A DNA stretch of 64,000 bases from Candidatus Campbellbacteria bacterium. Lineage in GTDB: Bacteria; Patescibacteriota; Minisyncoccia; Phycocordibacterales; JAXHMZ01. Where the stretch lies: assembly GCA_034521025.1 (NCBI GenBank), contig JAXHMZ010000005.1, positions 126,796-190,795 of the forward strand. The letters are read 5' to 3'. Below the pieces are notes generated by a model. The model was not told where the DNA came from, searched no databases, and was given only the letters and a program-made list of their open reading frames with translations. Positions 1-63,500 of this stretch are shown piece by piece. A program made the translations under genes and the position numbers. Every line of letters begins with the position of its first letter. Position 1 is the first letter of the stretch.

Positions 1-407
1 TATCCACCTCAGAAGAACAAGCCGACAACACAGCCAGTGCAAAAAGGACGAGAAAGAAGAACGGAACGGTTTTGAAGCGTACATCGAACATTCGATCCTC
101 CTTGGATCTGAGCCGCATTCGGCCCCTAGACACTATTGATCTCACGATGAGATCAATCTATCCTGTTTTTACACTGAAAAACTTTTTCTGTCAATACTTC
201 GTAATGGTTTTGGTACATTTGGAGTGTTCTTATCGAGAAAGTAAAAAGAAACTTAAAAAAGCATTTGTTTTGATCCACAGTCGATTTAAAGAAAAAAATA
301 CGCTCTTGGGGCAACTACTACAATAACACTGGGCACTGTTCTCGCTTAAAGTAAATATTTTAAGCCGTGTATTCTCTGGTAAAGCACCAAAAGTCATTAC
401 CTAAGAC

Positions 408-3900: not shown

Positions 3901-6334
3901 ATGAGTAAAAAAAGGTTCAAAAAAAGGAATATTCTTATTGGCATTTTTGCCTTTGTAATGTTGGTTATATCCGGAGGTCTTCTCTGGGCGTCTACTCTTT
4001 CCATCCCTGACATTTCCGCCTTTGAAACCAGAAAGGTGGAAGAGTCTACAAAGATATACGATCGCACAGGCGAAGTGCTTCTTTATGACGCACACGCGAA
4101 TATCCGCCGCACGGTAATAGACTCTGATGAGATGTCAGACAACATCCGCGGGGCAACCTTAGCCATTGAAGATCAAGATTTCTATAATCACATTGGGATT
4201 GATTTTTCCGCTATTTTTCGCGCTACTTTCGCTAATATAAAAGCAGGCGAGTACGCTCAGGGTGGATCTACAATAACCCAGCAAGTTATCAAGAACTCTC
4301 TTTTAACAAACGAGAAGACCTTGTCCCGTAAAGTCAAGGAGTGGATACTGGCTATAAAGCTAGAGAATGAATACTCTAAGGACGAAATACTAACACTCTA
4401 TTTGAATGAGATACCCTACGGCGGAACGATCTATGGCGCAGAAGAAGCGGCCCAAGCGTTCTTTGATAAACCAGCTAAGGATCTTGGTATAGCTGAATCA
4501 GCTTATTTGGCCTCGCTTCCGCAAGCACCCACTTATTTTCTAAATAACCCCGAGAAACTAGAAGCTCGGAAAAACGCTGTGTTGTCAAAGATGTTGAAAG
4601 GTAACTACATTTCTAGAGAAGAATACGAGGAAGCAAAAGAGGAAGACGTGGACTTTAACGGAATTGCCGGAACTGGTATAAAAGCTCCGCATTTTGTTTT
4701 TTATATCCTAGAAAAACTAGAAACCGAATATGGTAAAGAATTAATACGCGAAGGCGGACTAGACATAATCACAACACTAGATTATGAACTACAGGAGAAA
4801 ATTCAGGAAAGAGTATATGAATACATAATAGACCACCAAGAACAGTTTGATATGGAAAACGCTTCTGTTGTGGTTACAGATCCAAATAGCGGAGAAATAA
4901 TAGTAATGGTTGGCTCGCGTAAATATGACGACGAAAACATAGACGGCGCCGTAAATGTCGCCACCCGCTCTCGCCAGCCCGGCTCTACTTTTAAGCCGTT
5001 TGCCTATGCTACTGCCTTTAAAAACGGATATACGCCTGAATCAGTAATATTTCAACCTGCGCACACAGTTTTCAACGAACTGTGAGCCGCACGAAACAAC
5101 AAGAAAAGAATCTCCTTGTTTTTCCCCCGAAAACTATAACTTTAGCTACCCCGGACCGGTAACTATGCGCCAAGCTCTAGCCGCCTCACAAAACATTCCG
5201 GCAGTAAAAACACTATATTTAGCCGGAGCACGTAATACCATCAAAACCGCCAACGATATGGGGATCTCTACTCTAAATAACGACGACGCGGATCTCTCGC
5301 TCGTTTTAGGATCCGGCGAGGTTAAACTTCTTGAAATGACAAACGCTTACGGAGTTTTCGCCAACGGAGGCATCTACTATGAACCAACCGGAATTTTAGA
5401 GATAGAAGATAGAAGTGGAGAAAAAATAGAAGAGTTTGAAAAAGACAGCAAACGAGTATTGCCCGAACAGAACGCTTTACAAATAACAGATATACTTTCT
5501 GACAGAGGCTTGCGTGTAGGAACCTTCGGACCTGGTACGGCTCTCGATATCCCGAATCCTAATATAGCGGTAAAAACCGGTACGACCAATAATTATCGAG
5601 ATGTCTGGACTATAGGATACAACACAGATATGTCACTCGGTATTTGGGGTGGTAACAACAACAACGATCCTATCGTGAGAAGAGTTTCCACTTATGTCAT
5701 TTCTCCTTTGTGGCGAGAAATTCTTGATATTGTAACTGAAAAGTACCCGGGTGAGACTTTCAGAGAACCAAATAAGGATTATTCAGATATCAATAAACCT
5801 ATATTGACCGGATCTTATACCGGAGGAATTATAAGCGGCGGAAGGATCATCGATCGCGGAGTACATTCCATTCTCCATTGGACAAACCCTTCTAATCCTC
5901 GCGGTCCGGTACCTTCTAACCCTAACTCGATCTCTCAATACAGCTACTGGGAATATCCGGTGAGCGTGTGGAGTAGAGGACAGATTATCGATACCGAAGA
6001 TGAGGAAATAGAAATTGAGGAAGATGAAAACGAAGAGGAGGAAGATGAAAATAATAGTAATGAAGACGTAGAAGCCAACTTCGAGGTTGAGGGACTTAAC
6101 AGCACTTATGATATAGGAGACGAAATGGAATTTGTCGTAGATTCAAGATCTGTTGATATAGAAAAAGCAGAAGCTGTTTTTGGAGAGGAGAGTAATGTGG
6201 ATTCTACAGAGGCTTTCAGATTCACCTTTGAAACTTATTATCTTGACGAGGGCGTTTACTCCCTAGAAATCACCGTGTACGACCACGACGATCAACAAAT
6301 AATGAGAAGTTTTGAAGTAGAAATAGAAGACTAG
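3901..6334 (+). CDS. Class-A penicillin-binding protein (PBP1A-type: TM anchor, GT51 transglycosylase, transpeptidase, acidic C-terminal extension). Split between the SxxK and SxN motifs by a frameshift in about 5050-5140.
   Basis: GT51 motifs (ATLAIEDQDFYNHIGID, GGSTITQQ). STFK (SxxK) lies in ORF 3901..5085. FSPENYNFSYPGPVTMRQALAASQNIPAV (SxN) and KTGTTNN (KTG) lie in ORF 5165..6334, and the SxN segment is readable upstream of its ATG in frame 2. Confidence 0.85.
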
Positions 6335-6598: not shown

Positions 6599-7696
6599 TT
6601 ATTTATTCATAGGCATTACAATATAGGTAAAGTCTTTCGAACCAACTCCACGAACCACAAGCGGCCGTGATACTCCATTAAAAAGCAATTCAACCGATTC
6701 TTCCGGAATCGCCTGAAAACTATCTGTGATGTATCTATAGTTAAAATTAACTGACAGCGGCTCTCCTTCAGCGGTAACATCCAACTCTGCTTTATTCTCC
6801 CCAACTTCGCTTGATCTGGTTTCGAGGATCATCAAGTTTTTCTCGGGATCTATGTCAAACGTCACTTGATTGGTTTTTCCGGAAAAAATAGTTGAAACCT
6901 TAAAGGCGTCAATTAAGTCTTGTTTTAGAACTGTAACTTTAGTCGAATACCCTTCCGGAATAATTTTTGCGTAGTCGGGAAATACTCCATCAACTATTCG
7001 TGATGTTATATAAAAGGAATTATCTACAATAGCTATCTGATTATCTCCGAAGATCATTTCAACTTCACCGTCAACTCCCTCAAGGATCCTCTCTATTTCT
7101 AAAACATTTTTTTGCGGGACAAGCACCGGCTCTACAGAGTGAGCTTCTTTTTCGGATAATTTCTTCTCCGCTAAACGAAAAGAATCTGTCGCAACGAAAA
7201 CTAAGTTATTGTCATCGGTACCTGATATATACACACTGGACAATTCAGGTTTAACAGAAGAAACGGAGGCGCTGTACACAACTGACTTTATTCCCGCGCG
7301 TAGTTTTTCAGCACTGAAATGAACAGAAGTTCCTTTTATTCTAGGTATAGTTGGAAACTCTGAGTGATCAAAGGTATTAAAAGTCGCGTGTTGTTTCTCT
7401 GAGGCAACCAGAAGGGTCTTGTCTTCGCTTTCCAGGGTAATACTTTTTCCACGAAGAGAAGAAACATAAGAGGCGAGAGATTGAGCTGAAATAGCCACGA
7501 CTCCTTCCTTTTCTACTTTAACCGGAAGGGAAATTTCAATTCCTAATTCTAGATTAGTACTTTTTACTAATAGAATCCCATCCTTAGCTTCAAGTAAAAC
7601 AGAAGACAGAATTGGAAGAGATGCATGCTTTCCTGCTATCCTTTCTGTTTTTCTTAATGCGTCGGCTAGTTTGGTTTGTACACATTCTATCTTCAT
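6599..7696 (-). CDS. dnaN: DNA polymerase III beta sliding clamp.
   Basis: 365 aa with the three-domain clamp pattern. Immediately downstream of dnaA on the same strand. Confidence 0.9.
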   Translation of the reverse strand: MKIECVQTKLADALRKTERIAGKHASLPILSSVLLEAKDGILLVKSTNLELGIEISLPVKVEKEGVVAISAQSLASYVSSLRGKSITLESEDKTLLVASEKQHATFNTFDHSEFPTIPRIKGTSVHFSAEKLRAGIKSVVYSASVSSVKPELSSVYISGTDDNNLVFVATDSFRLAEKKLSEKEAHSVEPVLVPQKNVLEIERILEGVDGEVEMIFGDNQIAIVDNSFYITSRIVDGVFPDYAKIIPEGYSTKVTVLKQDLIDAFKVSTIFSGKTNQVTFDIDPEKNLMILETRSSEVGENKAELDVTAEGEPLSVNFNYRYITDSFQAIPEESVELLFNGVSRPLVVRGVGSKDFTYIVMPMNK

Positions 7697-7941: not shown

Positions 7942-9288
7942 CTAAAGCATAGCGCGTATCTGTGACAGTTCATTGTATATCTCGGAGTTATTCTTTAACT
8001 CCTCTCGCACTCTGTCACAGGAATGAATAACGGTTGTATGGTCTCGACCTCCCAACTTTTGTCCAATCAACGGAAAAGAAATTTTAAAATCCTCTCTTAA
8101 TATGAACATTATCATTTGCCTCGGTCGCACAACCTCCTTTTTCCGTGTTTTCTCAAAGATAACCTTTTCATCAATGTTATAGAATTCCGAAATCGTTTTT
8201 ATAACATCTTTGATAGCGATCTGTTTTCTCGGTTTAACCGAGGTCTTGGTTATGGATTGCAATTCGGAAATATCCAAGTCTCTACCCTTCATTTCCGCCT
8301 GCATAATGACGGTATTGAGTATACCTTCGAGATCTCTAACATTTCCCTCTACGGCAGAGGCAAGGTGTTCTACAGATTCTCGAGAAAGCGAAAAATTAGA
8401 ATGCTTTGCTTTGGCTGTGATTATCGCTACTCGAGAATCATGATCTGGAGGAGGAATGTCTACGATCATTCCCGCGCCAAAGCGCGACTTTAGACGCTCT
8501 TCAAGGTTTTGTATGTAGTTCGGATGTTTATCGCTGGAGAATACTATTTGCTTATTTGCGTCATAAAGGGCGTTGAAAAGGTGGAACAATTCTTCTTGAG
8601 TTTTGTCTTTGTTTGATAGGAATTGTATGTCGTCCATTATCAAGACATCGTAGTCTCTGTACTTTTCCTTGAATGCGTTTACACGATTGACCTGGATAGA
8701 GTTTAGAAAATCAACAGCAAACTTTTCACTGGTCAGGTAGTAACATTTCTTTCCCGAATAGAGCTCCTTCATCTTGTTACCGATCGCTTGTATCAAGTGA
8801 GTTTTGCCGTGCCCCGTGTTTCCGTATATAAAGAGTGGGTTGTATGTGGTGCCGGGTTTTTTAATAACCGCCTGAGCCGCGGCGTACGCCAGTTCATTGA
8901 AAGGACCAACCACAAAGGAATCAAAGTCGTACCGAGGATTCAGATTGTCCTCTTTGTTTATATAAACATCCTCAAACGGCAACTCCCCTCCCCTTGGCTG
9001 TTCGCGAAATGTTTTCTGCTTCTGTGTTCTTGCCGGCTTGCCTATTACATACTCTACGTTGCGAACTTCTCCAGCTCTGTCTCGTACCGCTTTAAGTATT
9101 GTTTTGTGATATTTGTTAAAGAGCCAGTCGCGGACAAATTGATTCGGTACAGAAATGTAGATTATTCCATCTTCGTGTTTTTGTATGTGGGTATCTTTAA
9201 ACCAAGTGTTAAACGTTGCGCTCGAAACAGATAGTTCTATCTCCACGAGCACGCTATCCCAGAGCTCTTTAATGTTCATAGCAGGCAA
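7942..9288 (-). CDS. dnaA: Chromosomal replication initiator DnaA.
   Basis: Walker A GNTGHGKTHL, an AAA+ core and a C-terminal DNA-binding domain (...IGQKLGGRDHTTVIHSCDRV...). Confidence 0.95.
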   Translation of the reverse strand: MPAMNIKELWDSVLVEIELSVSSATFNTWFKDTHIQKHEDGIIYISVPNQFVRDWLFNKYHKTILKAVRDRAGEVRNVEYVIGKPARTQKQKTFREQPRGGELPFEDVYINKEDNLNPRYDFDSFVVGPFNELAYAAAQAVIKKPGTTYNPLFIYGNTGHGKTHLIQAIGNKMKELYSGKKCYYLTSEKFAVDFLNSIQVNRVNAFKEKYRDYDVLIMDDIQFLSNKDKTQEELFHLFNALYDANKQIVFSSDKHPNYIQNLEERLKSRFGAGMIVDIPPPDHDSRVAIITAKAKHSNFSLSRESVEHLASAVEGNVRDLEGILNTVIMQAEMKGRDLDISELQSITKTSVKPRKQIAIKDVIKTISEFYNIDEKVIFEKTRKKEVVRPRQMIMFILREDFKISFPLIGQKLGGRDHTTVIHSCDRVREELKNNSEIYNELSQIRAML

Positions 9289-10098: not shown

Positions 10099-10881
10099 AT
10101 GTTAGGAGATTTTTTTCACGCGGTGCTGTACCAGCCGTTTTATAACGCCTTAGTTCTTTTAATTGAAGTTGTCCCCGCGGCTGACGTAGGGATAGCGGTG
10201 ATCATTCTCACTCTGGCCGTAAAATTCATAATACTTCCCCTTTCCATAAAAGCCACTCGAGCTCAGATCAAACTAAAAACCCTTGAGCCGAAAATAAAGG
10301 AAATTCAGGAGAAGTATAAAGACAATCGTGAAGAACAAGCCAAGGCAATGATGGGAGTATACAGCGAAGCCAAGGTAAACCCTTTCTCCGGCATATTTCT
10401 TCTTTTGGTACAGATGCCGATAATAATTGCTCTTTATTTTGTCTTTACTCGTGGCGGATTGCCCGAAATAGACCCGGAAGTTCTTTATTCGTTCGTGCCC
10501 ACACCTGATACCGTAAACATGCACTTTTTGGGAACATTTGACCTCTCCGAGAAAAGCGTAGTCCTTGCTCTGATAGCCGCGGGCACTCAATTCCTACAAT
10601 CGCACTTCTTGCTTTCAACCAAAAAGAACGAAGCAGAGAAAAATACTGACGATACAAAAGAGGGCCAGTCAGAGGAAAAAGAAGAAAAGCCAAAAGAACC
10701 CTCTTTCAAGGACGAACTTGCTAAAAGTATGAATCTACAAATGCGATTTGTTTTTCCTATTATTATAGGTTTTATCGCCTACTCTCTTTCCGGAGTTATC
10801 GCCATTTACTTCATAGTAAGCGGTGTTGTCTCTATCGCTCAAGAACTCTTCGTAAAAAGGCGACTTCGTGAAGAGTCCTAA
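10099..10881 (+). CDS. yidC: Membrane protein insertase YidC/Oxa1 family, short form.
   Basis: 260 aa with multiple TM helices and the conserved hydrophilic loop. Positioned after rnpA. Confidence 0.85.
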   Translation: MLGDFFHAVLYQPFYNALVLLIEVVPAADVGIAVIILTLAVKFIILPLSIKATRAQIKLKTLEPKIKEIQEKYKDNREEQAKAMMGVYSEAKVNPFSGIFLLLVQMPIIIALYFVFTRGGLPEIDPEVLYSFVPTPDTVNMHFLGTFDLSEKSVVLALIAAGTQFLQSHFLLSTKKNEAEKNTDDTKEGQSEEKEEKPKEPSFKDELAKSMNLQMRFVFPIIIGFIAYSLSGVIAIYFIVSGVVSIAQELFVKRRLREES

Positions 10882-47121: not shown

Positions 47122-48654
47122 CTATCTGGCGTATTCTATTGTGCGGGACTCGCGAATAACGTTGACCTTTATTTCTCCCGGGTAGCGCAACTCTCCTTCG
47201 ATTTTTCTTGCCAAATTTTTTGCCAGCTCCACCGCGTCTATGTCCGAGATATTTTCCGGAGTTACAAAAACTCTGATCTCTCGGCCGGCCTGTAGGGCGT
47301 AAGCTCTATCTATGCCATCAAAGGTCAGAGCCATATCCTCTAATTCAGAAAGGCGCTTGAGATAATTTTCTACCGAATCGCGTCTTGCTCCCGGACGAGA
47401 AGCGGAGATAGAGTCGGCAACTTGTACTATTTTTGCTTCCAATGTCTCGTAAGGATATTCTTCGTGATGAGCCTGCATCGCTTTTATGATCTCGGGCTTG
47501 GCTCCGAATTTTTCAAGAATACGTTTTCCTATTTCTACGTGCGATCCCTGAACTTCGTGATCAACCGCCTTTCCTATATCGTGAACAAGTCCGGCTGTTT
47601 TTGCTACTAACACATCAGCTCCGACTTCTTCGGCTATCATTCCGGCTAGGTGAGAGACCTCAATTGAGTGGCGTAATACATTTTGCCCGTAGGAAGATCT
47701 GAAATAAAGTCTTCCGAGAATAGACGTTATACGATTGTCTAGGTTGTAGATGCTACATTCATACACAGCTTCTTCTCCTTTTTCTCTTATTATCTGATTC
47801 ACCTCGGCTTGCGCTTTTTCTATTTCTTCCTCTATCCTGGTTGGCTGTACTCGTCCATCTAGTATTAGATTTTCCAAGGCAACCCTTGCTATCTGACGAC
47901 GGATCGGATCAAAGCTCGAAATCAAAATAGCGCCGGGAGTATCATCTATTATCAATTCAACACCGGCGGCTTTCTCAAACGTTCTTATGTTTCTGCCTTC
48001 TTTGCCGATTATTTTTCCTTTTATGTCCTCTGAATCTATGGATACAGAAGTGGACATTATTTCTGAGGCAACCGAGTTGCCTAAGCGGTGGATCGAGCTC
48101 ACCAAGACCTCTTTGGCTTTTTGTTGCATTCGTTCCTCACCTGAGATATCAAGCTTTTTGAGACGGTGCATCAGATCTTCTTCGTAATCGTGCTTTATTA
48201 CTTTGAAAATTTCTTCACGTGCCTCTTTTTCGTCCATATTTGAGATACTCGCGAGCTCTTGTCTTAACCTTTCTTCTAACTCTTTCGTTTCGTTTGAGTA
48301 AGAATCAAGCTCGCTTTGCTTCTCTTTCAGGCGAGACTCCTCGGAGTCCAGAGATAACTGCCTTTTGTCGAGAAGCTCTTCTTTTTTGATCAGGCGATCT
48401 TCAGTAGTCTTTCGTTTTTCGTCTGTGTTTTCTGCCTCCGTTTCAGCTCTTTCGCGAATTTCATCGGCTTTTTTCTGAGCGTCTGCGGTTATGTTTTTAG
48501 CCTCTTCTCGGGCTTCCAGAAGTATCTGTTTTACCTCCAGCTCCATAGACCCCCTTTTTCCTAGGGAAATGAGGAGGCGTAAAAAATAACCGACTGCGAT
48601 CCCGACAACAAGAGCAAATGCTACATAGAGGAGCAACAGTTCGTTATTAACCAT
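47122..48654 (-). CDS. rny: Ribonuclease Y.
   Basis: N-terminal TM helix, a long coiled coil, a KH domain, and an HD domain (...LVHDIGKA...). Confidence 0.85.
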   Translation of the reverse strand: MVNNELLLLYVAFALVVGIAVGYFLRLLISLGKRGSMELEVKQILLEAREEAKNITADAQKKADEIRERAETEAENTDEKRKTTEDRLIKKEELLDKRQLSLDSEESRLKEKQSELDSYSNETKELEERLRQELASISNMDEKEAREEIFKVIKHDYEEDLMHRLKKLDISGEERMQQKAKEVLVSSIHRLGNSVASEIMSTSVSIDSEDIKGKIIGKEGRNIRTFEKAAGVELIIDDTPGAILISSFDPIRRQIARVALENLILDGRVQPTRIEEEIEKAQAEVNQIIREKGEEAVYECSIYNLDNRITSILGRLYFRSSYGQNVLRHSIEVSHLAGMIAEEVGADVLVAKTAGLVHDIGKAVDHEVQGSHVEIGKRILEKFGAKPEIIKAMQAHHEEYPYETLEAKIVQVADSISASRPGARRDSVENYLKRLSELEDMALTFDGIDRAYALQAGREIRVFVTPENISDIDAVELAKNLARKIEGELRYPGEIKVNVIRESRTIEYAR

Positions 48655-54004: not shown

Positions 54005-54577
54005 TTGTCAATAGACCTTTTCACAGGTGTGAGGTTGTTTATGTCTGTGTTACAATTCCCACATATGAATGGAAAAAGTATTTTAATTATTGTTCTTCTG
54101 TTAGCTGTAGTTGGGATCATCTGGCTTGCCGCCTCCGGCGATGAGCAAGACGGTGACAACGATCAGGATAACGAGGAGCAAGTAGAAACAAACGGTGAGA
54201 CAGACGAAGACCCTGAGTCAGAGGGGAGTAATGACGACTCAGAGGTAGAAGGAGAGCAGAATGGTGAAGATGAAACCTCGGTTGATGACGAAGAAGGCGA
54301 GGAAGAAACCGTGATCACGTTTACGGACAATGGATTTGATCCCGAAGAAGTGACGGTCTCTGTGGGCGAGAGCGTTGTGTGGGTCAATGAGTCCAGTGAA
54401 GGAATGTGGCCTGCTTCAAATGTACATCCAACCCACGAGATATATTCCGAGTTTGATGCTTTAGGTGAAATTCCACCAGGAGAAGGCTGGGAGTTCACAT
54501 TTGAAGAAGCCGGAGATTGGGGATTTCACGATCATCTGAGTCCGCAATTTGAGGGCGTAGTACACGTCACTGAATAG
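54005..54577 (+). CDS. Secreted acidic protein with a C-terminal cupredoxin-like beta-sandwich domain.
   Basis: Signal/TM segment and an Asp/Glu-rich linker. C-terminal ...VITFTDNGFDPEEVTVSVGESVVWVN... pattern. No Cys ligand, so probably not a copper site. Confidence 0.35.
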   Translation: MSIDLFTGVRLFMSVLQFPHMNGKSILIIVLLLAVVGIIWLAASGDEQDGDNDQDNEEQVETNGETDEDPESEGSNDDSEVEGEQNGEDETSVDDEEGEEETVITFTDNGFDPEEVTVSVGESVVWVNESSEGMWPASNVHPTHEIYSEFDALGEIPPGEGWEFTFEEAGDWGFHDHLSPQFEGVVHVTE

Positions 54578-54682
54578 ACAATCTATTATAAGGGACGAAA
54601 GCACGAAGCTCTGGTTTAAGCCAGAGCTTTTGTTTTGAGATTTACCCTTCCCTCATTCTCGCTTAATTACCAATTCGAGCAC

Positions 54683-54785
54683 TTGACAGAAAAAGTATTT
54701 CAATGTAAAAGCAAGATAGATTGGTCTCATAGGGAGACCATCAACACCTAGAGGCCAAATGTGGCCCGGATCCAAGGAGGATCAA
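54683..54785 (+). promoter_or_regulatory. Promoter (TTGACA-17nt-TAAAAG) plus a leader with two hairpins and an RBS. A paralogous leader lies at 60424..60526.
   Basis: Hairpins GGTCTC-ATAGG-GAGACC and GGCCA-AATG-TGGCC. The second shows compensatory changes in the paralog (GGTCA-AATG-TGACC). Confidence 0.5.
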
Positions 54786-55303
54786 ATGTTTGTACGTTTC
54801 AAGATCGTTCCGCTTCTCTTACTCGCCCTTTTTGCTCGGCGCTCCGCGCTCTGGGTAGAATCTTCGGAAGAGGATCCCCTACTTGAAGAAACTTCCCCTC
54901 AAGTTTGGAGCGTGGATCTCAGTGAAGCCGGCTTTGGATTGACCTTTACGCCAAACGACGACCTAAGGTCTGATCCCTACGTGGACTTTCTGGGGATCTA
55001 ATGAAGGTGGAGGTTCTTGCGCAGAGCAACAACCCCGATCTTCACCTACAAACACTCCAAGGGTTCACTCGATATGACTTCATCGATTCAATTTCTGTGT
55101 GTGCCTTGGAGCGCGAGGAAAACGCGGAGCTGCTCGAGAGGATCGATAACGCTACAGAAAGCAACTTCGGTTCTTTCTATGACGCTTGGCTTGGGCTGTA
55201 TGACAGAGAATGTGACACTTCCTTCTCTCGTCTTGGGTGGCCGAACCCTGAAGCCAATGAAGGCCTGGGAATGTGTTCGCTGGAGAGGGTTAGTGAAGTC
55301 TAA
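54786..55303 (+). pseudogene. Array unit 1 of the lectin-like secreted-protein gene, broken into two ORFs by a stop/indel after ...DFLGI.
   Basis: Near-identical to the intact unit 3, except for TAATGAAGG versus TACGAAGG at the junction. Confidence 0.55.
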
Positions 55304-55332
55304 GTAGTTATCCCCAGTGAACTTCATGTTCA

Positions 55333-55925
55333 TTGGCAATTTATATTATAATTAAAGTGTATATGAGTGTTTTCAAACTACTTTCGATATTGGTCTCAGC
55401 TGTAGTCGCTTTTCTATCTGTTGTCGCGTTGTTTTTGATGTTTCTAATGAGAAGGATCCCCCAACCGAAGAAACTTCCCCTCAAGTTTGGAGCGTGGATC
55501 TCAGTGAAGCCGGCTTTGGCGTATTGACCTTTACGCCAAACGACGACCTAAGGTCTGATCCCGACGTGGACTTTCTGGGGATCTAACGAAGGTGGAGGTT
55601 CTTGCGCAGTACAATACAACCCCGATCTCCACGGACAAACACTCGAAGGGTTCACTCGATATGACTTCATCGATTCAATTCTCGTGTGTGCCTTGGAGCG
55701 CGAGGAAAACGCGGAGCTGCTCGAGAGGATTGATAACGCTACAGAAAGCAACTTCGGTTCTTTCTATGACGCTTGGCTTGGGCTGTATGACAGAGAATGT
55801 GACACTTCCTTCTCTCGTCTTGGGTGGCCGAACCCTGAAGCGAATGAAGGCCTGGAATGTGTTCCTGGCTTGGAAGAGGGCTTGAGCGAAGTCTAAGTAG
55901 TTATCCCCAGTGAACTTTATGTTCA
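55333..55925 (+). pseudogene. Array unit 2, frameshifted.
   Basis: T5 versus T6 homopolymer difference in the signal-peptide region relative to unit 3, and TAACGAAGG versus TACGAAGG later. The downstream domain is otherwise intact in another frame. Confidence 0.55.
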
Positions 55926-55955
55926 TTGGGGATTTATATTATAATTAAAGTGTAT

Positions 55956-56471
55956 ATGAGTGTTTTCAAACTACTTTCTTTTTTATTGGTCTCAGCTGTA
56001 GTCGCTTTTCTATTTGTTGTCGCGTTGTTTTTTGATGTTTCTAATGAGAAGGATCCCCCAACCGAAGAAACTTCCCCTCAAGTTTGGAGCGTGGATCTCA
56101 GTGAAGCCGGCTTTGGCGTATTGACCTTTACGCCAAACGACGACCTAAGGTCTGATCCCGACGTGGACTTTCTGGGGATCTACGAAGGTGGAGGTTCTTG
56201 CGCAGTACAATACAACCCCGATCTCCACGGACAAACACTCGAAGGGTTCACTCGATATGACTTCATCGATTCAATTCTCGTGTGTGCCTTGGAGCGCGAG
56301 GAAAACGCGGAGCTGCTCGAGAGGATTGATAACGCTACAGAAAGCAACTTCGGTTCTTTCTATGACGCTTGGCTTGGGCTGTATGACAGAGAATGTGACA
56401 CTTCCTTCTCTCGTCTTGGGTGGCCGAACCCTGAAGCGAATGGAGGCCTGGAACGTGTTCCTGGCTTGTGA
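55956..56471 (+). CDS. Array unit 3, intact: secreted protein with a C-type-lectin-like signature (about 170 aa from Met11 of the ORF).
   Basis: Signal peptide MSVFKLLSFLLVSAVVAFLF. Motifs WLGLYDRECDTSFSRLGWPNPEAN and ...EREENAELLERIDNATESNFGSFYDA. Confidence 0.55.
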   Translation: MSVFKLLSFLLVSAVVAFLFVVALFFDVSNEKDPPTEETSPQVWSVDLSEAGFGVLTFTPNDDLRSDPDVDFLGIYEGGGSCAVQYNPDLHGQTLEGFTRYDFIDSILVCALEREENAELLERIDNATESNFGSFYDAWLGLYDRECDTSFSRLGWPNPEANGGLERVPGL

Positions 56472-56559
56472 AGAGGGCTTGAGCGAAGTCTAAGTACAGT
56501 TAATCCTCAGTGAACTTTATGTTCATTGGGGATTTATATTATAATTAAAGTGTATATGA

Positions 56560-57120
56560 GTGTTTTCAAGCTTACTTTTCTTTTTTATTGGTCTCAGCTG
56601 TAGTCGCTTTTCTATTTGTTGTCGCGTTGTTTTTCTGACGTTTTCCAACGAGAAGGATCCCCCAACCGAAGAGACTTCCCCTCAAGTTTGGAGCGTGGAT
56701 CTCAGTGAAGCCGGCTTTGGCGTATTGACCTTTACGCCAAACGACGACCTAAGGCTCTGATCGACGTGGACTTTCTGGGGATCTACAAAACGAAGGTGGG
56801 AGGTTCTTGCGAGCAGACAAAGTCCGATCTCCACGGACAAACACTCGAAGGGTTCACTCGATATGACTTCATCGATATCAACTCTCGTGTGCGCCTTGGA
56901 GCGCGAGGAAAACGCGGAGCCGCTCGAGAGGATTGATAACGCTACAGAAAGCAACTTCGGTTCTTTCTATGACGCTTGGCTTGGGCTGTATGACAGAGAA
57001 TGTGACACTTCCTTCTCTCGTCTTGGGTGGCCGAACCCTGAAGCGAATGAAGGCCTGGAATGTGTTCCTGGCTTGGGAGAGGGCCTTCTGATGCAGATAG
57101 AGATCCATTATCCCTGACAT
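56560..57120 (+). pseudogene. Array unit 4: the most divergent copy, with several indels and stops.
   Basis: Homologous segments are spread over three frames (56560..56760, 56863..57117). Confidence 0.5.
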
Positions 57121-57203
57121 TATTGAAATGTTTGCCTACAAAAGGTGTTCGTGACAACTTACGCCACCCCTGTTAACAACAACTTGTTGTATAGTGAAAA
57201 GTA

Positions 57204-57389
57204 ATGAACGACAAAAAGTTCTTCTATGTACTATTGATAGCATCTGTTGCCCTGGCCCTTGTTTTTGCGGTGCTTATTTTTGGCAAGGGAGGAGCTCAGC
57301 CCACAGGGCAAGATGAAGTCTATCAATATGCTTCGTTGGCAAATGAACACTATTCGAACGAAGAATGGAACAAAACAATCGCACACTGA
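57204..57389 (+). CDS. Small membrane-anchored protein.
   Basis: N-terminal TM helix. 61 aa. Confidence 0.25.
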   Translation: MNDKKFFYVLLIASVALALVFAVLIFGKGGAQPTGQDEVYQYASLANEHYSNEEWNKTIAH

Positions 57390-57456
57390 CTAACAAGGGT
57401 CGGCTTAGGCAAAGCGGGCTTCATCGGGTATATGGAAAAACAGGGGCTATGCATTT

Positions 57457-58080
57457 TTGAGATTGGCTCATGAGGAGCAGTACAATAATGATGCAGACGC
57501 CTCAGTTACAGACGAATTCGCAGAAGAAGCAATACGTAGCCTTGAAACAGCCGTAGAGCGTGACCCACAGGATCATGAAAGTTTGTTCTACCTCGGATAC
57601 ATTCACCTGTTTATGCGTGATAACTGGGAGAGGGCAGCCCCGTACTTAGAACGAGCATACGACCTTGATCCAAAAGACCCCGAGTATCTCATCGGTATGG
57701 GGTGGGTACATAGTCAAAATGCCGAAGAGTCGCTTGAGGATGCCCAGACAGCCGTAACGTACTACGAGGAGTCCATCGAGATCTCCCCGATGCCTTTGGC
57801 GTATAACGGACTCGGCCACGTACTGAGTAACGGTATAAACGACCAAATACGCGCAATAGAAAGCCTCGAGCAGGCGATAGAGCTCGATCCTTCTTACGTT
57901 TCTCCTTACCACAATCTTGCACTTGCTCACGCTCGACTGGGAGAGAAAGAGAAGGCACTTGAATATTACGAGGGAGTCTATGAGCTCACGGGCGAGAATG
58001 ATACGCGGAGAGACGAATTACGTGAAGAGTTGTTAGCAATAGACACTATAAATATACAAGATGATGAATTGGCGCAATAA
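57457..58080 (+). CDS. TPR-repeat protein.
   Basis: Repeated A..Y/...LG.....A 34-residue-like units, e.g. ESLEQAIELDPSYVSPYHNLALAHARLGEKEKALEYYE. Confidence 0.6.
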   Translation: MRLAHEEQYNNDADASVTDEFAEEAIRSLETAVERDPQDHESLFYLGYIHLFMRDNWERAAPYLERAYDLDPKDPEYLIGMGWVHSQNAEESLEDAQTAVTYYEESIEISPMPLAYNGLGHVLSNGINDQIRAIESLEQAIELDPSYVSPYHNLALAHARLGEKEKALEYYEGVYELTGENDTRRDELREELLAIDTINIQDDELAQ

Positions 58081-59520
58081 AATTACCGGCTTTGTTTTTT
58101 TGGTAGCCTTGCTAGCGGTTTTTGGTGGTATTGGAATTCAAACTGCAGACGCTTCGCCGCGACAGGGCTTTCCTCCATCTGCATCGGATGATGACGCGGA
58201 AGCAACAGACGAACCGTTAGTCGAAGGGACGGTAATACTTTAGAGTTCGTAGTCAGACGACGATGGGATTACAGACTAACCGAGTCTGAGCCAGTTACGA
58301 CCAGAAGTTAAACCATGCTCCATGCAGCGGAGCGGAATGATACTGGCGACAGATGATGAATGAATCAGAGTATGGATGCAGTGGTGGCGATGTTATCGTA
58401 AAAACAATGAAACTGAGCGTCCTGGGGGGTTCGGGAACGGAGGTGAACAGCCAGGTAAGGTGATATGTTCAACCTGTGGCATAGAGGAGTCTTGATAGAA
58501 GCGGGAGTCGCGTCGGAATAGATGGCGGGTATCTGGAGCTGATGATCCCGAAGAAGATTATTGCGATCGTTTCCCTATGTCGAGGAGATGCAATGGTGGA
58601 GACGATGGAGGAGACGATGGTGGAGATGATGGTGGAGACGAATGCCCTCCCGGCGATGAGCTCGTGGACGGTAGGTGTGTTCACGTACCAGATCCAGAAC
58701 CGGAGCCCGAGCCGGAACCAGAACCAGAACCGGAGCCCGAGCCGGAACCAGAACCAGAACCGGAGCCCGAGCCGGAACCAGAACCGGAGCCCGACCCTTC
58801 CGTTTTGAATATAAGCAGTAACATAGACAGCTCCGTCGCCCCGGGAGCGGAAGTAACGCGGTGGAATCGTTCTGTTACCTATGATTATGATATGTGCACT
58901 AGAGGTACTCGGTGGGGAGACTTTTCTTATCCATGCAACTTTCGCAGTATAGTTAATTGGTCAGAGTCTGGAACAACATACACAACGATTCGACGAATAA
59001 GGAGTTCAAGTTCTTCTGTACGTAGATACCTTGAGGCGGAAGATACACACAAAGGAGCTAGTTTTACTGGTTGGAGTGGATGTAATGGGGATACATTTAC
59101 GATCGACGGAGGCGTCGGATAGATGCGGTAAGCGCAACGCACGCTGAACTACCAGAACCGTCACCGCTCAAAACCGAGGACCCGATACTCCCACCTCCAC
59201 CAGCACCACAACCAAAGATCAACTCCTTCACCGCCAATCCGGAGTGGATACGACGCTACTCCGAAACTCGAGAAAACGACACCGACGGAAAATCAACTCT
59301 CAGGTGGGACGTCAAAGACGTAGACACCTGTGAAATGGAAGCGAACCCAGAACTAGAACCACCTCTTTCAATGGGCTCAATTGAATCCGATGGAAAAAAA
59401 GAAGTAACCGAGATCACCCGAACCACTGAATTTACCCTCACCTGTACCGGAGAGGATAGCAGTGACGAGGTCTCCGCCACCACCACTGTCAATGTGTTGC
59501 CGGTGTACGAGGAGTTTTAG
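58061..59520 (+). pseudogene. Secreted Cys-rich protein with a (PE)n linker and a C-terminal Ig-like domain, fragmented across at least three frames.
   Basis: Signal peptide in 58061..58243. 58577..59122 holds the GDDGGDD and PEPEPEP... repeats. Frame +2 continues from about 59085 to 59520 (...KINSFTANPEW...TLRWDVKDVDTCEM...). Confidence 0.45.
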
Positions 59521-59871
59521 TAAACATTTACTAAGTACATTAACAAAAACCCCGACCTCACTCGGCGTTTTCGCCAACTCAGAAACCATTTAAAACGATA
59601 CGATTTGTTTTAGCTCCAAGCAGAAACTGCCACCAGAAGAGGAGTTGTTGAATGCAACAACTTCATCCGCCCTGCCGCGATTTCTCGTGGTCTCACCGTA
59701 CTTTCATAGGAGTGGCCAAATTGGAAACGCTCCTCCCCCGACGACCTTGAGCCTACCCCTTTCACTAAGTGCCTGCGCTCAGTTGAACCACCGGAAGCCC
59801 AGGAAGCTTCGAACTCAGAGATCCGACTTGCCTGCCTGATCAAGACACACCCCGAGCAACAGCGTGAGGAG

Positions 59872-60324
59872 ATGAATTATCATCCCATCCTGGGTAAGGT
59901 AGCGCGAGAACGAGCTGAGGACATGGCTGAAAATGGCTACTACGGAGGAGAGGACTATGGTCTTCCATACCCTCCTCACGTTGACCACGACGGCTTTGGC
60001 CCCAATTACTACATTTGCAAAGCGGGCTACATCATAGATCCTTGGATCTGTGAGGAGGCTGAAGAAGACCCGTTCATCAATACGGTTGAGTCGATTGGTT
60101 GGGGTTCGGGTAGTTCAAGGAGTTCCCCTCAAGATCAACTGAACGGTTGGTTAAATTCACCGGGTCATCGCCGGCACGTATTGGCTACTTCAGGCCCCCA
60201 CGAAGTTGCGTCCACCAACTACGGCATAGGCCACGCCGCGACCGGTGATAGCCCCGACCGTCCTGGCAGATCAGCCAGTTTCTGGGTGTTCATTGCCGCA
60301 CCTCCGCCTGAGTCGAGTGAATAG
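59872..60324 (+). CDS. CAP/YkwD-like domain protein, probably lacking its N-terminus (frameshifted upstream).
   Basis: ...NGWLNSPGHRRHVLATSGPHEVASTNYGIGHA resembles the YkwD/CAP motif. The reading frame stays open upstream of the annotated Met. Confidence 0.4.
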   Translation: MNYHPILGKVARERAEDMAENGYYGGEDYGLPYPPHVDHDGFGPNYYICKAGYIIDPWICEEAEEDPFINTVESIGWGSGSSRSSPQDQLNGWLNSPGHRRHVLATSGPHEVASTNYGIGHAATGDSPDRPGRSASFWVFIAAPPPESSE

Positions 60325-60360
60325 AGAAAAAGTACAAAAAACCAAAAGTGGCAGTACAAT

Positions 60361-60390
60361 GAACGGGTCTACGGGCCCGTTCTTTTTTAT
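60361..60390 (+). terminator. Rho-independent terminator after the CAP-like gene.
   Basis: GAACGGG...CCCGTTC hairpin followed by TTTTTTA. Confidence 0.5.
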
Positions 60391-60526
60391 GAAAATTCCA
60401 GCGTCAAACACCATGCCTATCATTGACAGAAAAAGCTTCCCAATGTAAAAGCAAGATAGAGTGGTCTCAAAGGGAGATCATTTACACCTAGAGGTCAAAT
60501 GTGACCTCGGATCCAAGAAGGATCAA

Positions 60527-61009
60527 ATGTTTGGCGTACGTTTAAAGATCGTTCCGCTTTTTCTCATCGTCCTTTTTACTCTGGTTACTCTGGCAGCTTG
60601 CGCTCCCGCGACGGATGCGTTGCCCGAGAGTAGCCCGGAGATTCTCTCTCTTGATGCCAAGAGGATAGACGGCGGAGAGAGAATGCGCTACGAATGGGAA
60701 GTCGATCCGAATGGCTCTACCGCGGATACGTGGCTTGGGGTTTGGACGGGCGACCCACAGCGCCCGGAAATCCCGCAAGGGGAAACGTGGCCGTTTTCTC
60801 TTGATGAATGTGACAATGAAGATAGTGTAACTTGTCACAGCGACTCGCGGGTGACTTTTGCATTTATTCTCGATGTCACTACGGGTGAGGAGGAATCCGG
60901 CACGACTTACTACCAAGTGTACGTCGGTAATTTCGGCCCTCCGAACGATTTTTCTACCCCAAGAGAGGTGGAAGTGAGTAGCGACATTCGCTCTCACGCG
61001 TACCCGTAA
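60527..61009 (+). CDS. Lipoprotein paralogous at its N-terminus and leader to the lectin-like array gene.
   Basis: MFGVRLKIVPLFLIVLFTLVTLAAC lipobox. Upstream leader homologous to 54683..54785. Confidence 0.5.
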   Translation: MFGVRLKIVPLFLIVLFTLVTLAACAPATDALPESSPEILSLDAKRIDGGERMRYEWEVDPNGSTADTWLGVWTGDPQRPEIPQGETWPFSLDECDNEDSVTCHSDSRVTFAFILDVTTGEEESGTTYYQVYVGNFGPPNDFSTPREVEVSSDIRSHAYP

Positions 61010-61158
61010 GGTTCAACTGACAGTAAACATAAGGCGGACACTCGATGTCCGCCTTAACTTATTTTCATAAATTTATATAACATTGATTTTTGATAAAATG
61101 TTGAGCTGTGGAAAACTTTTCGTCTGGTATTTGTATATATGCCATATAATTAATACCA

Positions 61159-61686
61159 ATGGACACTAAAAGCGTTCTCTATATACTATTGGTCGTGCTT
61201 GTCGGATTAGCTCTGATATTTGTAGTGTCGATTTTTGACGGGGAAGAAAGTTCTACGGTTGATGACAAAGGAAGCGAAGAAGAATCAGAAGCTCCGGCGG
61301 AGCAAACCTCAACACAAGATGGTTGGACTCACACCGCCACCGTCAACAACATGAATATCACCTACTACGTCGTCGATGAAGTAGACAGCGAGGAGGGATA
61401 TACGAACGAATACGATCATGAGGCAGAGATGTGCCTCATTCGTCTTTCGGAGGACTACTTGGAAGGGACACCACCTGCAGTTTTTGGTATCCTAGGCTCT
61501 CTCGCACGTTGTTACGGTCAGGCAGAGCTCGGATTTCCAACGGGTGACTTTGTCGCGGATACGAATTACATCAACCGCTTCATCCGTGAATACATCGATC
61601 GGTGCGACAGACAACTCGAACCTCTTGGTTTTCCGGTGAATGACGGACAATGCGAGGATATGCCTCGATTTGAAGAGGAGTTGTAG
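61159..61686 (+). CDS. Membrane-anchored hypothetical protein.
   Basis: N-terminal TM helix. Terminator hairpin at about 61697-61735. Confidence 0.4.
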   Translation: MDTKSVLYILLVVLVGLALIFVVSIFDGEESSTVDDKGSEEESEAPAEQTSTQDGWTHTATVNNMNITYYVVDEVDSEEGYTNEYDHEAEMCLIRLSEDYLEGTPPAVFGILGSLARCYGQAELGFPTGDFVADTNYINRFIREYIDRCDRQLEPLGFPVNDGQCEDMPRFEEEL

Positions 61687-61807
61687 GTTGGAGTACTGCC
61701 GAAGCCCCGTTTTTATGGGGCTTCTTTATATTTGTGGTTATCCCCAATACAAAATGCAAGATGTTCTTACGTCTGTATAATACGGATATATTAAGTTCAG
61801 TTTTGTT

Positions 61808-62971
61808 ATGACATCTCGATATCTCTTTCAATCTCTCTTGGTTTTATCAGCAGCGGTGCTTGTTTCTTTGTTTATACCGACACAGGTATACGCCCAAGGA
61901 GGAAGTGTTGGCGTGTACAAATGTTTTGGAGGGGCGTGTCAAATGGTTTCTTGTGCTACAGGTAGTTGCGTAGACCAGTGTAGTTCTTATAAAGACTGTC
62001 AAGAGCCCGAGCCCGAGCCTGATGACGATGAGGAAACACATAGAATCAGGATAATAGTAAGCGGAGAGGGGTCAGGAACGGTTAGGGGTAATTATGGGAT
62101 CAACTGTAGCTCCGACTGTCGCTATAGTAATAGAACTTCATCTAGTTCCACTACCTGGTCTCCGAGAGCAACTGCTGATTTCTGACCTCGGAATTCGTGG
62201 AATGGAAAAGCGGCCCCGTTTGATAGAGATGGAAGATATGTTTGCGGAACGAATATAGAGTGCGAGGTCGAAGGGAGAACCTCTACTGTTACTTTAGAAG
62301 CAGAGTTTGACCTTGTGCCGGAGCCCGATCCTGAACCAGAGCCGGAGCCGGATCCGGATCCTGAACCCGATCCCGAGCCTGAACCAGAGCCTGACCCCGA
62401 ACCTGAGCCAGAGCCGGTTGAAACAATTCTTAATGTACGTAGCAGGATCAACAATATCTCGGCAAACGCGGACGTTACATTTTGGCGAGAAGAGTTTTCC
62501 GGATGGAACTCCTGCACCATATCTGGTTATGTGTTTCCCTATTGTGAGCCGGAGTACACCTGGACCGAGTACTCTACAGCCCAAACACCCCATCAAATTA
62601 AAACTAGCAGTAACATTGAGCGATATATAGAAGCCGAAGGAGAGCACAGCGGAGCTAACTTTTCCCGCTGGAATGACTGCGACAATAATTCATATCCAAT
62701 AAACGGCGCTTCCAATGACGTTTGCTATACGTATGTCTCCGCCGATGGAACACAAACTGTTACTGCTAGGTATGAGGATAATGCCTCAGATTTAACTCTG
62801 GAAAAAAATATTTCCTCAAAAACAACCTTCTTCGGCAAGGGGGGCGTGGTAACAAATGAGACCGGCCAAAACGGTGGTATACAACTTACTTGCGACAATG
62901 ATAGTAGTAGTTGTAGAACCGCTACTGATAGTTTCACACAGTCTGAAGTCGGAGTAGTGGCTACCCCCTGA
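61808..62971 (+). CDS. Secreted Cys-rich protein with a (PE/PD)n linker, read as one frame containing a single in-frame TGA at 62183..62185.
   Basis: ORFs 61808..62185 and 62315..62971 are in the same frame, separated only by TGA. The C-terminal domain is paralogous to 58577..59122 (...[14 protein letters not shown].. versus ..ERYIEAEGEHSGANF..). Confidence 0.45.
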
Positions 62972-63032
62972 CTCGAACACATCCTCCGTCTTTCATAGGT
63001 GGCTGGTACCCTGATTCCGGATTATAGCTGCT

Positions 63033-63500
63033 ATGGACAGAAGGAATACAGCGTTGTCCCAAACCTGCAATGTGCCAATGAGTCAATCTTCCGAGAGCCT
63101 GGGTGCTCGGTTTAGGAACTTTAGAACTTTGGCCGGCGAGGCGGAGCAAGTGCTGGGCTCTAGTGCTAGATTACACGGGGAAGTGCAGGTATATAACTCC
63201 ACCTATGATTCTCCTATAGAGCTATCATTTAGACTTTGGGATTCTGAAAATGTCCCGGCTGAATGTGATGCGCCGGGAGGAATAGATATCTCTGTGGAAG
63301 AAAGGACATTTTCCAATAATGGAACTTATGAGTTTTCTACTATCATAGGAGCCGAGGGAGAGCACGATGTTGATTTGGAGCAAAATACCGAATATGTTTA
63401 TTGTGCGATCGGCGAACAGGATAACGGAACACAGGTTACGAAATACAGTGACTTAAGTGGACTTCAGACTTTGATAAGACCAAACTTTCAAGAGTTTTAG
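63033..63500 (+). CDS. Paralog of the C-terminal domain family (AEGEH motif).
   Basis: ...FSTIIGAEGEHDVDLEQNTEYVYCAIGEQDNGT.... Confidence 0.35.
   Translation: MDRRNTALSQTCNVPMSQSSESLGARFRNFRTLAGEAEQVLGSSARLHGEVQVYNSTYDSPIELSFRLWDSENVPAECDAPGGIDISVEERTFSNNGTYEFSTIIGAEGEHDVDLEQNTEYVYCAIGEQDNGTQVTKYSDLSGLQTLIRPNFQEF

Follow-up and report, generated by a model that had tools for sequence, protein, structure and literature searches.

A reused promoter, leader and signal-peptide module with a probable structured mRNA leader at three secreted-protein genes of a Candidatus Campbellbacteria bacterium

The DNA analysed here (the window) is a stretch of 64,000 nucleotides (nt) from a Candidatus Campbellbacteria bacterium (assembly GCA_034521025.1, contig JAXHMZ010000005.1, positions 126,796 to 190,795 of the forward strand). 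Within it, three genes for secreted proteins, termed A, B and C, open with a common block of ~190 bp that is made of a promoter-like element, a leader with three hairpins (H1, H2 and H3) and a lipoprotein-type signal peptide. The stems of the hairpins stayed fully paired in all three copies in spite of the substitutions that separate them, and the pairing of H1 and H2 in the sense RNA appears to be maintained by selection. The structured leader is probably real, statistically supported and restricted to this lineage, and it appears to be part of a module that has been reused.

To our knowledge, the bacteria of the Candidate Phyla Radiation (CPR, Patescibacteria) are uncultured and their gene regulation is almost unknown, notably for the surface and secreted proteins by which they are believed to attach to hosts. 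An initial annotation of the window had described the leaders of genes A and B, with two hairpins each, and had proposed that an RNA structure or a dyad operator co-regulates two paralogous surface-protein genes.

Extent and copy number of the shared 5' module

Each copy is laid out in the same way, as TTGACA, 17 nt, TAAAAG or TAAAAA, a leader of ~68 nt carrying H1 to H3 and then the signal-peptide codons. Over the copies, H1 has 7 bp, H2 has 5–7 bp and H3 has 5 bp with the Shine-Dalgarno sequence in its loop. The leaders of A and B lie where the initial annotation had placed them, apart from a shift of one base at the start of B (TTGACA at 60423, not 60424). The GGTCTC-N5-GAGACC hairpin attributed to both was found as such in copy A, whereas copy B reads GAGATC and has one pair as G.U. 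H3 had not been described. The third copy, C, was found on the minus strand at the start of the window by searching the window with leader pieces of 20–22 nt. The elements of the three copies are listed below.

54683–54711, plus strand: promoter-like element of module A (TTGACA 54683–54688, 17-nt spacer, TAAAAG 54706–54711)
54722–54740, plus strand: H1 of copy A, TGGTCTC-ATAGG-GAGACCA (7 bp, -10.5 kcal/mol)
54753–54766, plus strand: H2 of copy A, GGCCA-AATG-TGGCC (5 bp, -7.8 kcal/mol)
54769–54783, plus strand: H3 of copy A, GATCC-AAGGA-GGATC (5 bp, -6.4 kcal/mol)
54786–54875, plus strand: coding part of module A, signal peptide MFVRFKIVPLLLLALFARRSALWVESSEED, matching B and C up to ...GGAT
60423–60451, plus strand: promoter-like element of module B (TTGACA 60423–60428, 17-nt spacer, TAAAAG 60446–60451)
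60462–60480, plus strand: H1 of copy B, TGGTCTC-AAAGG-GAGATCA (third pair G.U)
60491–60508, plus strand: H2 of copy B, core GGTCA-AATG-TGACC at 60493–60506 (C-G to U-A relative to copy A)
60510–60524, plus strand: H3 of copy B, GATCC-AAGAA-GGATC
60527–61009, plus strand: gene B, a predicted lipoprotein of 160 amino acids (aa), signal peptide MFGVRLKIVPLFLIVLFTLVTLAAC, lipobox LAAC
1–194, minus strand: module C (TTGACA 194–189, TAAAAA 171–166, ATG 91–89)
155–137, minus strand: H1 of copy C, TGATCTC-ATCGT-GAGATCA (A-U where copy A has G-C)
124–111, minus strand: H2 of copy C, GGCCG-AATG-CGGCT (A-U to G-C and G-C to G.U relative to copy A)
108–94, minus strand: H3 of copy C

The limits of the homology were set from alignments. 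The 5' edge falls exactly at the -35 hexamer and the 3' edge ~30 codons into the gene, so that the shared coding part comprises the signal peptide, the lipobox and a few residues (~5). Identity was 80–88% over the promoter and leader, 60–66% over the signal-peptide codons and ~30% (the random level) beyond the block. The 20–22-nt leader sub-motifs had a chance expectation of 0.00–0.02 in shuffled windows, and the leaders were recognized as similar by nhmmer with E values of 1e-64 to 1e-68. Exactly three copies were present in the window, both by nhmmer and by a covariance model built from the three leaders and run with its filters off. They are 5.7 and 54 kb apart, C being inverted relative to A and B, and they have diverged by 12–20%. 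Relative to copy A, the 69 leader columns contain 8 substitutions in B and 16 in C.

A recent segmental duplication, which had been raised as the alternative in the initial annotation, does not account for the block as judged from these alignments, because the leaders carry 8 and 16 substitutions, the codons are only 60–66% identical, so that divergence is uneven, and the homology ends abruptly on both sides. The mature parts of the three proteins are unrelated: that of A belongs to the family of a tandem array, that of B is an orphan with no significant similarity to the array protein, and that of C is a protein with TSP_3 (thrombospondin type-3) repeats. The genes are therefore not paralogues as first supposed, since only the 5' module is common to them. 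Three unrelated bodies behind one module indicate, on the sequences compared, that the module was moved or retained as a unit.

Conservation of stem pairing

Standard pairs were found in 51 of the 51 stem cells (17 pairs in three copies). Three pairs were changed on both sides, and the two single-sided changes both gave G.U on the sense strand. The third pair of H1 is G-C in A, G.U in B and A-U in C. In H2 (copies A, B and C in this order), pair 3 is C-G, U-A and C-G, pair 5 is A-U, A-U and G-C, and pair 1 is G-C, G-C and G.U. The compensatory change first reported between GGCCA..TGGCC and GGTCA..TGACC is thus a true double change from C-G to U-A, and the further copy revealed by the search, whose changes in H1 and H2 are all compensatory or G.U, extends the covariation to a third sequence with no uncompensated change in a stem.

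Each leader was also folded alone from its inferred start. The minimum free energy (MFE) structures consisted of the same three hairpins, with z-scores of -3.1, -3.8 and -3.4. Despite the substitutions, hairpin energies stayed within ~2 kcal/mol (-8.5 to -10.5 kcal/mol for H1 and -7.8 to -9.2 kcal/mol for H2). Some helices are longer outside copy A: H1 of copy B reaches 10 bp in the MFE fold, an inserted T lengthens H2 of copy B to 7 bp (GAGGTCA/TGACCTC) and an A-to-G change in copy C pairs with a downstream C and lengthens H2 there. When the 3' partners were slid by 1–3 columns, pairing fell to 25–51% and no compensatory pair was left.

The significance of the pairing was estimated by permutation. 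Copy A was taken as the reference and the substitutions of B and C were re-placed randomly over the 69 columns, each keeping its type (transition or transversion). The probability of zero broken pairs was 1e-4 when the substitutions of B (8) and C (16) were placed independently, 3e-4 when the two changes shared by B and C were placed once on a common branch, and 9e-4 when only H1 and H2 were considered (H3 and the Shine-Dalgarno region excluded). Changes numbered 8 in the 34 stem columns versus 16 in the 35 unpaired columns. The unpaired parts vary: linker 1, which joins H1 to H2, is nearly unconstrained, A and C agreeing at 5 of its 12 positions, and identity in the H1 loop is 2–4 of 5.

Several points weigh against the structured leader. 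Only three sequences from one genome are available, so that covariation tests of the R-scape type are powerless; in a column-shuffle control, itself weak with three rows, 31 of 500 shuffles reached the observed values. The hairpins were defined on copy A, which introduces a slight bias toward structure. The stem of H3 is invariant, hence without covariation, and may be kept merely as a Shine-Dalgarno sequence. Gene A looks degenerate (the lipobox Cys is lost and the frame contains a stop), although its stems are the most perfect of the three. Searches of genomes, metagenomes, viral contigs, proteins and relatives yielded no homologous leader elsewhere. The transcription start is a prediction from the sequence, and the -10 of the module ends in G or A, without the final T of the tRNA promoters of this genome.

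The small number of copies, the perfect stems of an apparently decaying gene and the lack of conservation outside the genome would suit an explanation in which the pairing has no function. An old duplication would have been kept alike by gene conversion, and hairpin-templated (quasi-palindrome) mutation together with chance would mimic compensation; short inverted repeats are known substrates of templated correction. This seems rather improbable, since none of the 51 cells was broken after 24 substitutions (P ~1e-4 to 9e-4) and stem columns changed less than unpaired ones. H2 was lengthened independently in two copies by indels or flanking changes. The non-coding promoter and leader are better conserved than the adjoining signal-peptide codons, the opposite of what neutral decay gives. 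Gene conversion homogenizes and would not yield different complementary pairs in different copies.

Other features of the leader were considered and rejected. A further hairpin spanning the start codon (AAAUGU/ACGUUU), which would be the fourth, was predicted in A and B but is broken in C by an uncompensated CGT-to-CGC change. An outer helix around H1 occurs in copy C only, and the block of linker 1 that changes from ACAC to GTGT has no complementary partner. No hairpin followed by a U-run, as in a transcription attenuator, is present. The modules contain 3–4 GATC sites each in ~110 nt (94–200, 54769–54880 and 60476–60590), and the H1 change in B and C makes GATC in the arms. Control of the Dam type was rejected: GATC is over-represented generally (349 observed, ~250 expected), the window has eight other clusters of the same density, and the clustering in the modules is probably incidental.

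RNA structure versus operator DNA

Of the two forms proposed initially, an RNA structure is favoured over a dyad operator, and the hairpins would act in the sense mRNA leader. This preference is drawn because each of the two single-sided changes leaves a G.U pair in the sense RNA, would be an A.C mismatch on the antisense strand and makes the dyad asymmetric as DNA, and because both half-sites of H1 changed together in copy C, for which a dimer reading DNA gives no reason. The sense folds were more stable than the antisense folds by 4.6 kcal/mol in B and 8.6 kcal/mol in C.

The hairpins, or the palindromes in the DNA, might instead bind a trans-acting regulator that switches the three genes, either a repressor on the H1 dyad (~+5 to +23) or an RNA-binding protein on the hairpins or the AAUG loop. 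In copy A, H1 is a perfect 19-bp dyad just 3' of the -10, a typical operator position. The first 13 nt of the promoter-like element, TTGACAGAAAAAG, are identical in the three copies and reach further than the -35 hexamer requires, and neither the AAUG loop of H2 nor the preceding CTAG varies among the copies. In the nearest analogue, the erp module of Borrelia, control is exerted through conserved operator DNA (PMC10016077). A DNA operator gives no reason for H2 to change at two different pairs with complementarity kept, nor for the H1 of copy B to be asymmetric as DNA yet paired as RNA, and no regulator gene adjoined any of the three loci among the open reading frames (ORFs) scanned. A regulator of this kind is accordingly regarded as unlikely overall. 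Its form with an RNA-binding protein conflicts with none of the data and converges on the reading of the leader as a cis-acting structure.

Promoter-like element and inferred transcript start

The element resembles a sigma-70 promoter, with a perfect -35, a 17-nt spacer and an imperfect -10 (TAAAAG or TAAAAA). The TTGACA/TAAAAG hexamers and their spacing were as first described; the -10 lacks the canonical final T, and the element can be called promoter-like only. The tRNA genes in the window have canonical TTGnnn-16/17-TAnnnT promoters. The module was missed by a consensus promoter scan because its -10 ends in G or A and not in T. The transcription start was placed from hexamer spacing, 7 nt after the -10 (~54718 in copy A), which puts the start of H1 at +5 (~4 nt from the 5' end); in the MFE folds it begins at +2.

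Modules A and B each look like the start of their own transcription unit, because terminator-like hairpins with T-runs lie just upstream of them:

54605–54630, plus strand: terminator-like hairpin and T-run with an 11-bp stem and the tail TGTTTTGAGA, ending the upstream cupredoxin-like gene
60361–60382, plus strand: terminator-like hairpin and T-run, ending the upstream CAP-domain gene just 5' of module B

The gene upstream of module A (54005–54577) matched Cupredoxin_1 slightly under the Pfam cut-off.

Proposed role of the leader

The block is best read, with about even confidence, as a portable expression and export module that contains a cis-acting structured 5' untranslated region (5'UTR). 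A role of the leader as a stabilizer is held with less confidence than this. H1, ~4 nt from the inferred 5' end, would form together with H2 a 5' stabilizer that blocks 5'-end-dependent decay, a setting into which RNase Y, encoded in the genome (gene at 47122–48654), would fit. H3, with its weak invariant stem and the Shine-Dalgarno sequence in its 5-nt loop, would set the rate of ribosome loading. The outcome might be a matched, probably high, expression of the exported proteins. This mechanism of mRNA stabilization and Shine-Dalgarno presentation was inferred from position and from known systems.

In copy A the Shine-Dalgarno sequence AAGGAGG fills the H3 loop and the two adjoining bases of the 3' arm; in copy B it is weakened to AAGAAGG. 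The predicted probability of AAGGA in the loop being unpaired was 0.85–1.0 in B and C; within the Shine-Dalgarno sequence, just the two final G residues pair. An alternative pairing of the Shine-Dalgarno sequence with the coding region was predicted in copy A only and is absent from B and C. From these folds, H3 seems to present the ribosome-binding site or to tune its use mildly, and it does not resemble an occluder of the thermometer type.

A more far-reaching version can be formulated, in which the ~190-bp block is a portable cassette grafted by recombination onto unrelated genes, giving co-regulated surface lipoproteins, with hairpins recognized by a dedicated RNA-binding regulator or localization factor. 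It is considered speculative and improbable. If true, this would be a first case of an episymbiotic CPR bacterium that diversifies its surface proteins by modules and controls them post-transcriptionally.

Gene A and the tandem array

The start codon of gene A is probably the ATG at 54786. Its lipobox Cys is lost (TGT to TGG, Trp) and its reading frame is broken by a TAA stop at 54999–55001. The gene is a chimera with a sharp junction at AGGAT (54871–54875): the 5' side matches B and C up to 54875, whereas the sequence from 54871 (AGGATCCCC...) matches units 2–4 of the array, whose own signal peptide differs.

54871–57117, plus strand: body of gene A and three more tandem units of ~595 bp of one family

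Units 2–4 have their own different signal peptide and no module. Of the four units of this small secreted-protein family, unit 3 (55956–56471) is the sole uninterrupted ORF. Compared with unit 3, units 1 and 2 each contain an additional A (CTAATGAAGG and CTAACGAAGG versus CTACGAAGG), which produces the in-frame TAA and, in unit 1, a TAATG stop/start overlap at 54999–55003; unit 4 is broken at several places. The interrupted units may be pseudogenes or split genes, or the repeat may have been misassembled. The junctions between units (55314–55336, 55903–55933 and 56502–56534) contain a long hairpin with a 9–14-bp stem and a CCAGTGAAC...GTTCATTGG core, followed by TTATATTATAATTAAAG immediately 5' of the ATG of the next unit, and they repeat with the unit. 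Their sequence suggests a terminator joined directly to an AT-rich segment that resembles a promoter.

The chimera raises a further explanation, in which recombination at the 5' block would exchange the gene bodies behind an expression site and so vary the surface proteins, as in Mycoplasma vsp and vpma, with the dyads as recombinase core sites. It would account for one module on three unrelated bodies and for a sharp chimera placed ahead of mostly interrupted array units that look promoter-less, and the conserved parts of vpma and vsp are likewise only the 5'UTR and signal-peptide regions (PMC2268961). Against it, every copy has its own promoter-like element, so that no single expression site exists; a divergence of 12–20% implies no active exchange; and the junction in gene A lies at the end of the module and not at the dyads. 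Copy C is inverted and lies 54 kb away, beyond the essential genes dnaA, dnaN and nusA; were the DNA between C and either other copy inverted, a large core segment would be turned with it. The neighbouring ORFs that were scanned included none with a recombinase domain. Such shuffling is very improbable here.

In the NCBI annotation, gene A (U5L75_03375, 80 aa, MWPGSKEDQMFVRF..., MWPGSKEDQ...) starts at the ATG in the H2 loop (window 54759–54788). The real start is probably the ATG at 54786 behind the strong Shine-Dalgarno sequence, and the NCBI start too far upstream, because the stretch between the two ATG codons is not coding when read in copies B and C. An upstream ORF or alternative start at the H2-loop ATG was rejected, since copy B reads ATG-TGA, out of frame, and every difference between A and C in this stretch would be non-synonymous.

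Genes B and C and the genomic setting

In gene B the homology to the module stops near 60616 and the mature part is an orphan; it had no Pfam match, and no homologue besides itself was found among 5.8 billion clustered proteins. Gene C (signal peptide MFDVRFKTVPFFFLVLFALAVLSAC...) extends past the window start. Its full product is a TSP_3-repeat lipoprotein of 131 aa with the lipobox LSAC. Downstream of gene C, beyond the window start, a second and larger protein (>616 aa) has TSP_3 repeats and a Pro-Glu-rich stretch, and module C may drive a two-gene operon of surface proteins with calcium-binding repeats.

Near module C are dnaN (6599–7696, minus strand), dnaA (7942–9288, minus strand) and yidC (10099–10881). 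From the positions of these three genes, the replication origin is probably near 9.3–10.1 kb, with module C ~9 kb away. A class A penicillin-binding protein is apparently divided between 3901–5085 (transglycosylase and start of the transpeptidase) and 5165–6334 (remaining transpeptidase); a frameshift or a genuine split of the gene (3901–6334) is possible.

Modules A and B lie in an island of ~9.5 kb (54005–63500) of small secreted or orphan proteins at a position divergent from nusA. It contains the cupredoxin-like protein, the array, a TPR protein, proteins with Pro-Glu linkers, a CAP domain protein and lipoprotein B. Synteny was checked in 92 kb of DNA around nusA from four relatives (NusA 76–85% identical). 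In three of the four, the same position holds a type IV pilus operon (T2SSE, T2SSF and pilins), and the island appears lineage-specific from this comparison. The loci lie in the chromosome, close to dnaA and nusA, and no sign of a prophage was seen around them. The ORFs at 58577–59122 and 62315–62971 encode long (Pro-Glu/Asp)n linkers from imperfect 6-nt GAACCN repeats (58687–58797 and 62317–62417). These linkers are followed by similar-looking Cys-containing domains, and the short, overlapping ORFs around them suggest larger genes broken by frameshifts.

Searches beyond the window

Pieces of the source genome also occur in the Logan run SRR26473340. In the genome contigs, the promoter pattern gave only two chance promoter matches, one of them before a T-box-like leader. 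A relaxed promoter pattern retrieved 31 stretches from metagenome contigs, none leader-like by nhmmer, and a pattern of the hairpin at the ribosome-binding site (RBS) had no match in viral contigs. The covariance model built from the three leaders, with filters off, found nothing in the 92 kb of nusA loci of the relatives. With the signal-peptide profile, a word-indexed protein search returned only the NCBI protein of gene A, and when 1.84 billion representative proteins were scanned exhaustively with HMMER, the products of A, B and C were the only matches. Rfam 15 at the gathering threshold detected only 4 tRNAs in the whole window. Permissive Rfam scans of both leaders gave sub-threshold matches only, the best being the pan motif on the antisense strand of copy A (20.2 bits versus a cut-off of 36.2).

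Significance

The module provides a concrete, testable cis-element, made of 17 base pairs with natural compensatory variants. Its reuse hints that the shuffling known from Borrelia and Mycoplasma also shapes the surface proteomes of CPR bacteria, and it is a candidate native expression and secretion cassette for genetic work in these organisms. With three copies in one metagenome-assembled genome so far, its general importance is limited, and it will stay modest unless more copies or a dedicated factor appear.

Comparison with known systems

Stem-loops at or close to the 5' end and ribosome binding at a strong Shine-Dalgarno sequence are established stabilizers of the ompA, aprE and ermC mRNAs against 5'-end-dependent decay (PMC7509114). 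In such leaders, which belong to abundant exported proteins, the stem-loop is combined with a second element at the RBS. The module would resemble the Escherichia coli ompA and Bacillus subtilis aprE and ermC leaders by a stem-loop near the predicted 5' end, a strong Shine-Dalgarno sequence and an encoded RNase Y. It differs from them in having no Rfam or sequence relationship and in having three short hairpins where ompA has hp1/ss1/hp2/ss2. Like RBS-occluding hairpins and RNA thermometers (ROSE, fourU, prfA), it has a weak stem (H3, -6.4 kcal/mol) at the Shine-Dalgarno sequence just before the start codon. Unlike in these, most of the Shine-Dalgarno sequence (AAGGA) lies in the loop, no U-rich anti-Shine-Dalgarno strand is present and no Rfam match was obtained. 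The thermometer or RBS-sequestering class was rejected, as this AAGGA part is predicted to be unpaired in B and C.

In Mycoplasma agalactiae vpma and M. bovis vsp, the 5'UTR and signal-peptide region are conserved and the remaining gene is without significant homology (PMC2268961). Those genes are clustered, and one promoter is moved among them by site-specific inversion through a neighbouring Xer1 recombinase; here each copy has its own TTGACA-17-TAAAAR, the copies are 5.7 and 54 kb apart and no recombinase was found in the ORFs scanned nearby. A phase-variable locus of this type was rejected on the grounds of the separate promoters and the lack of a recombinase in those ORFs.

The closest architecture is that of the erp (OspE/F-related) genes of Borrelia burgdorferi with their 'upstream homology box' (UHB). 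At the erp loci the promoter/operator, the leader peptide and the first residues of the mature lipoprotein are conserved, and the rest of the coding sequence is independently derived (PMC10016077). Here too, in a likeness of architecture for which no similarity of sequence is expected, the promoter, 5'UTR, signal peptide, lipobox and ~5 residues are shared and the bodies are unrelated. The erp genes are regulated by operator DNA upstream of the promoter (BpaB, BpuR and EbfC) and occupy allelic positions on cp32 prophages, whereas the additional conservation found here lies downstream of the promoter and resembles RNA hairpins, and the three copies are in the chromosome of a CPR bacterium. The architecture is that of an erp/UHB-type conserved 5' module, understood as a functional class and not as a homology family, and the module is an analogue of the erp and vpma/vsp systems and not a member of them.

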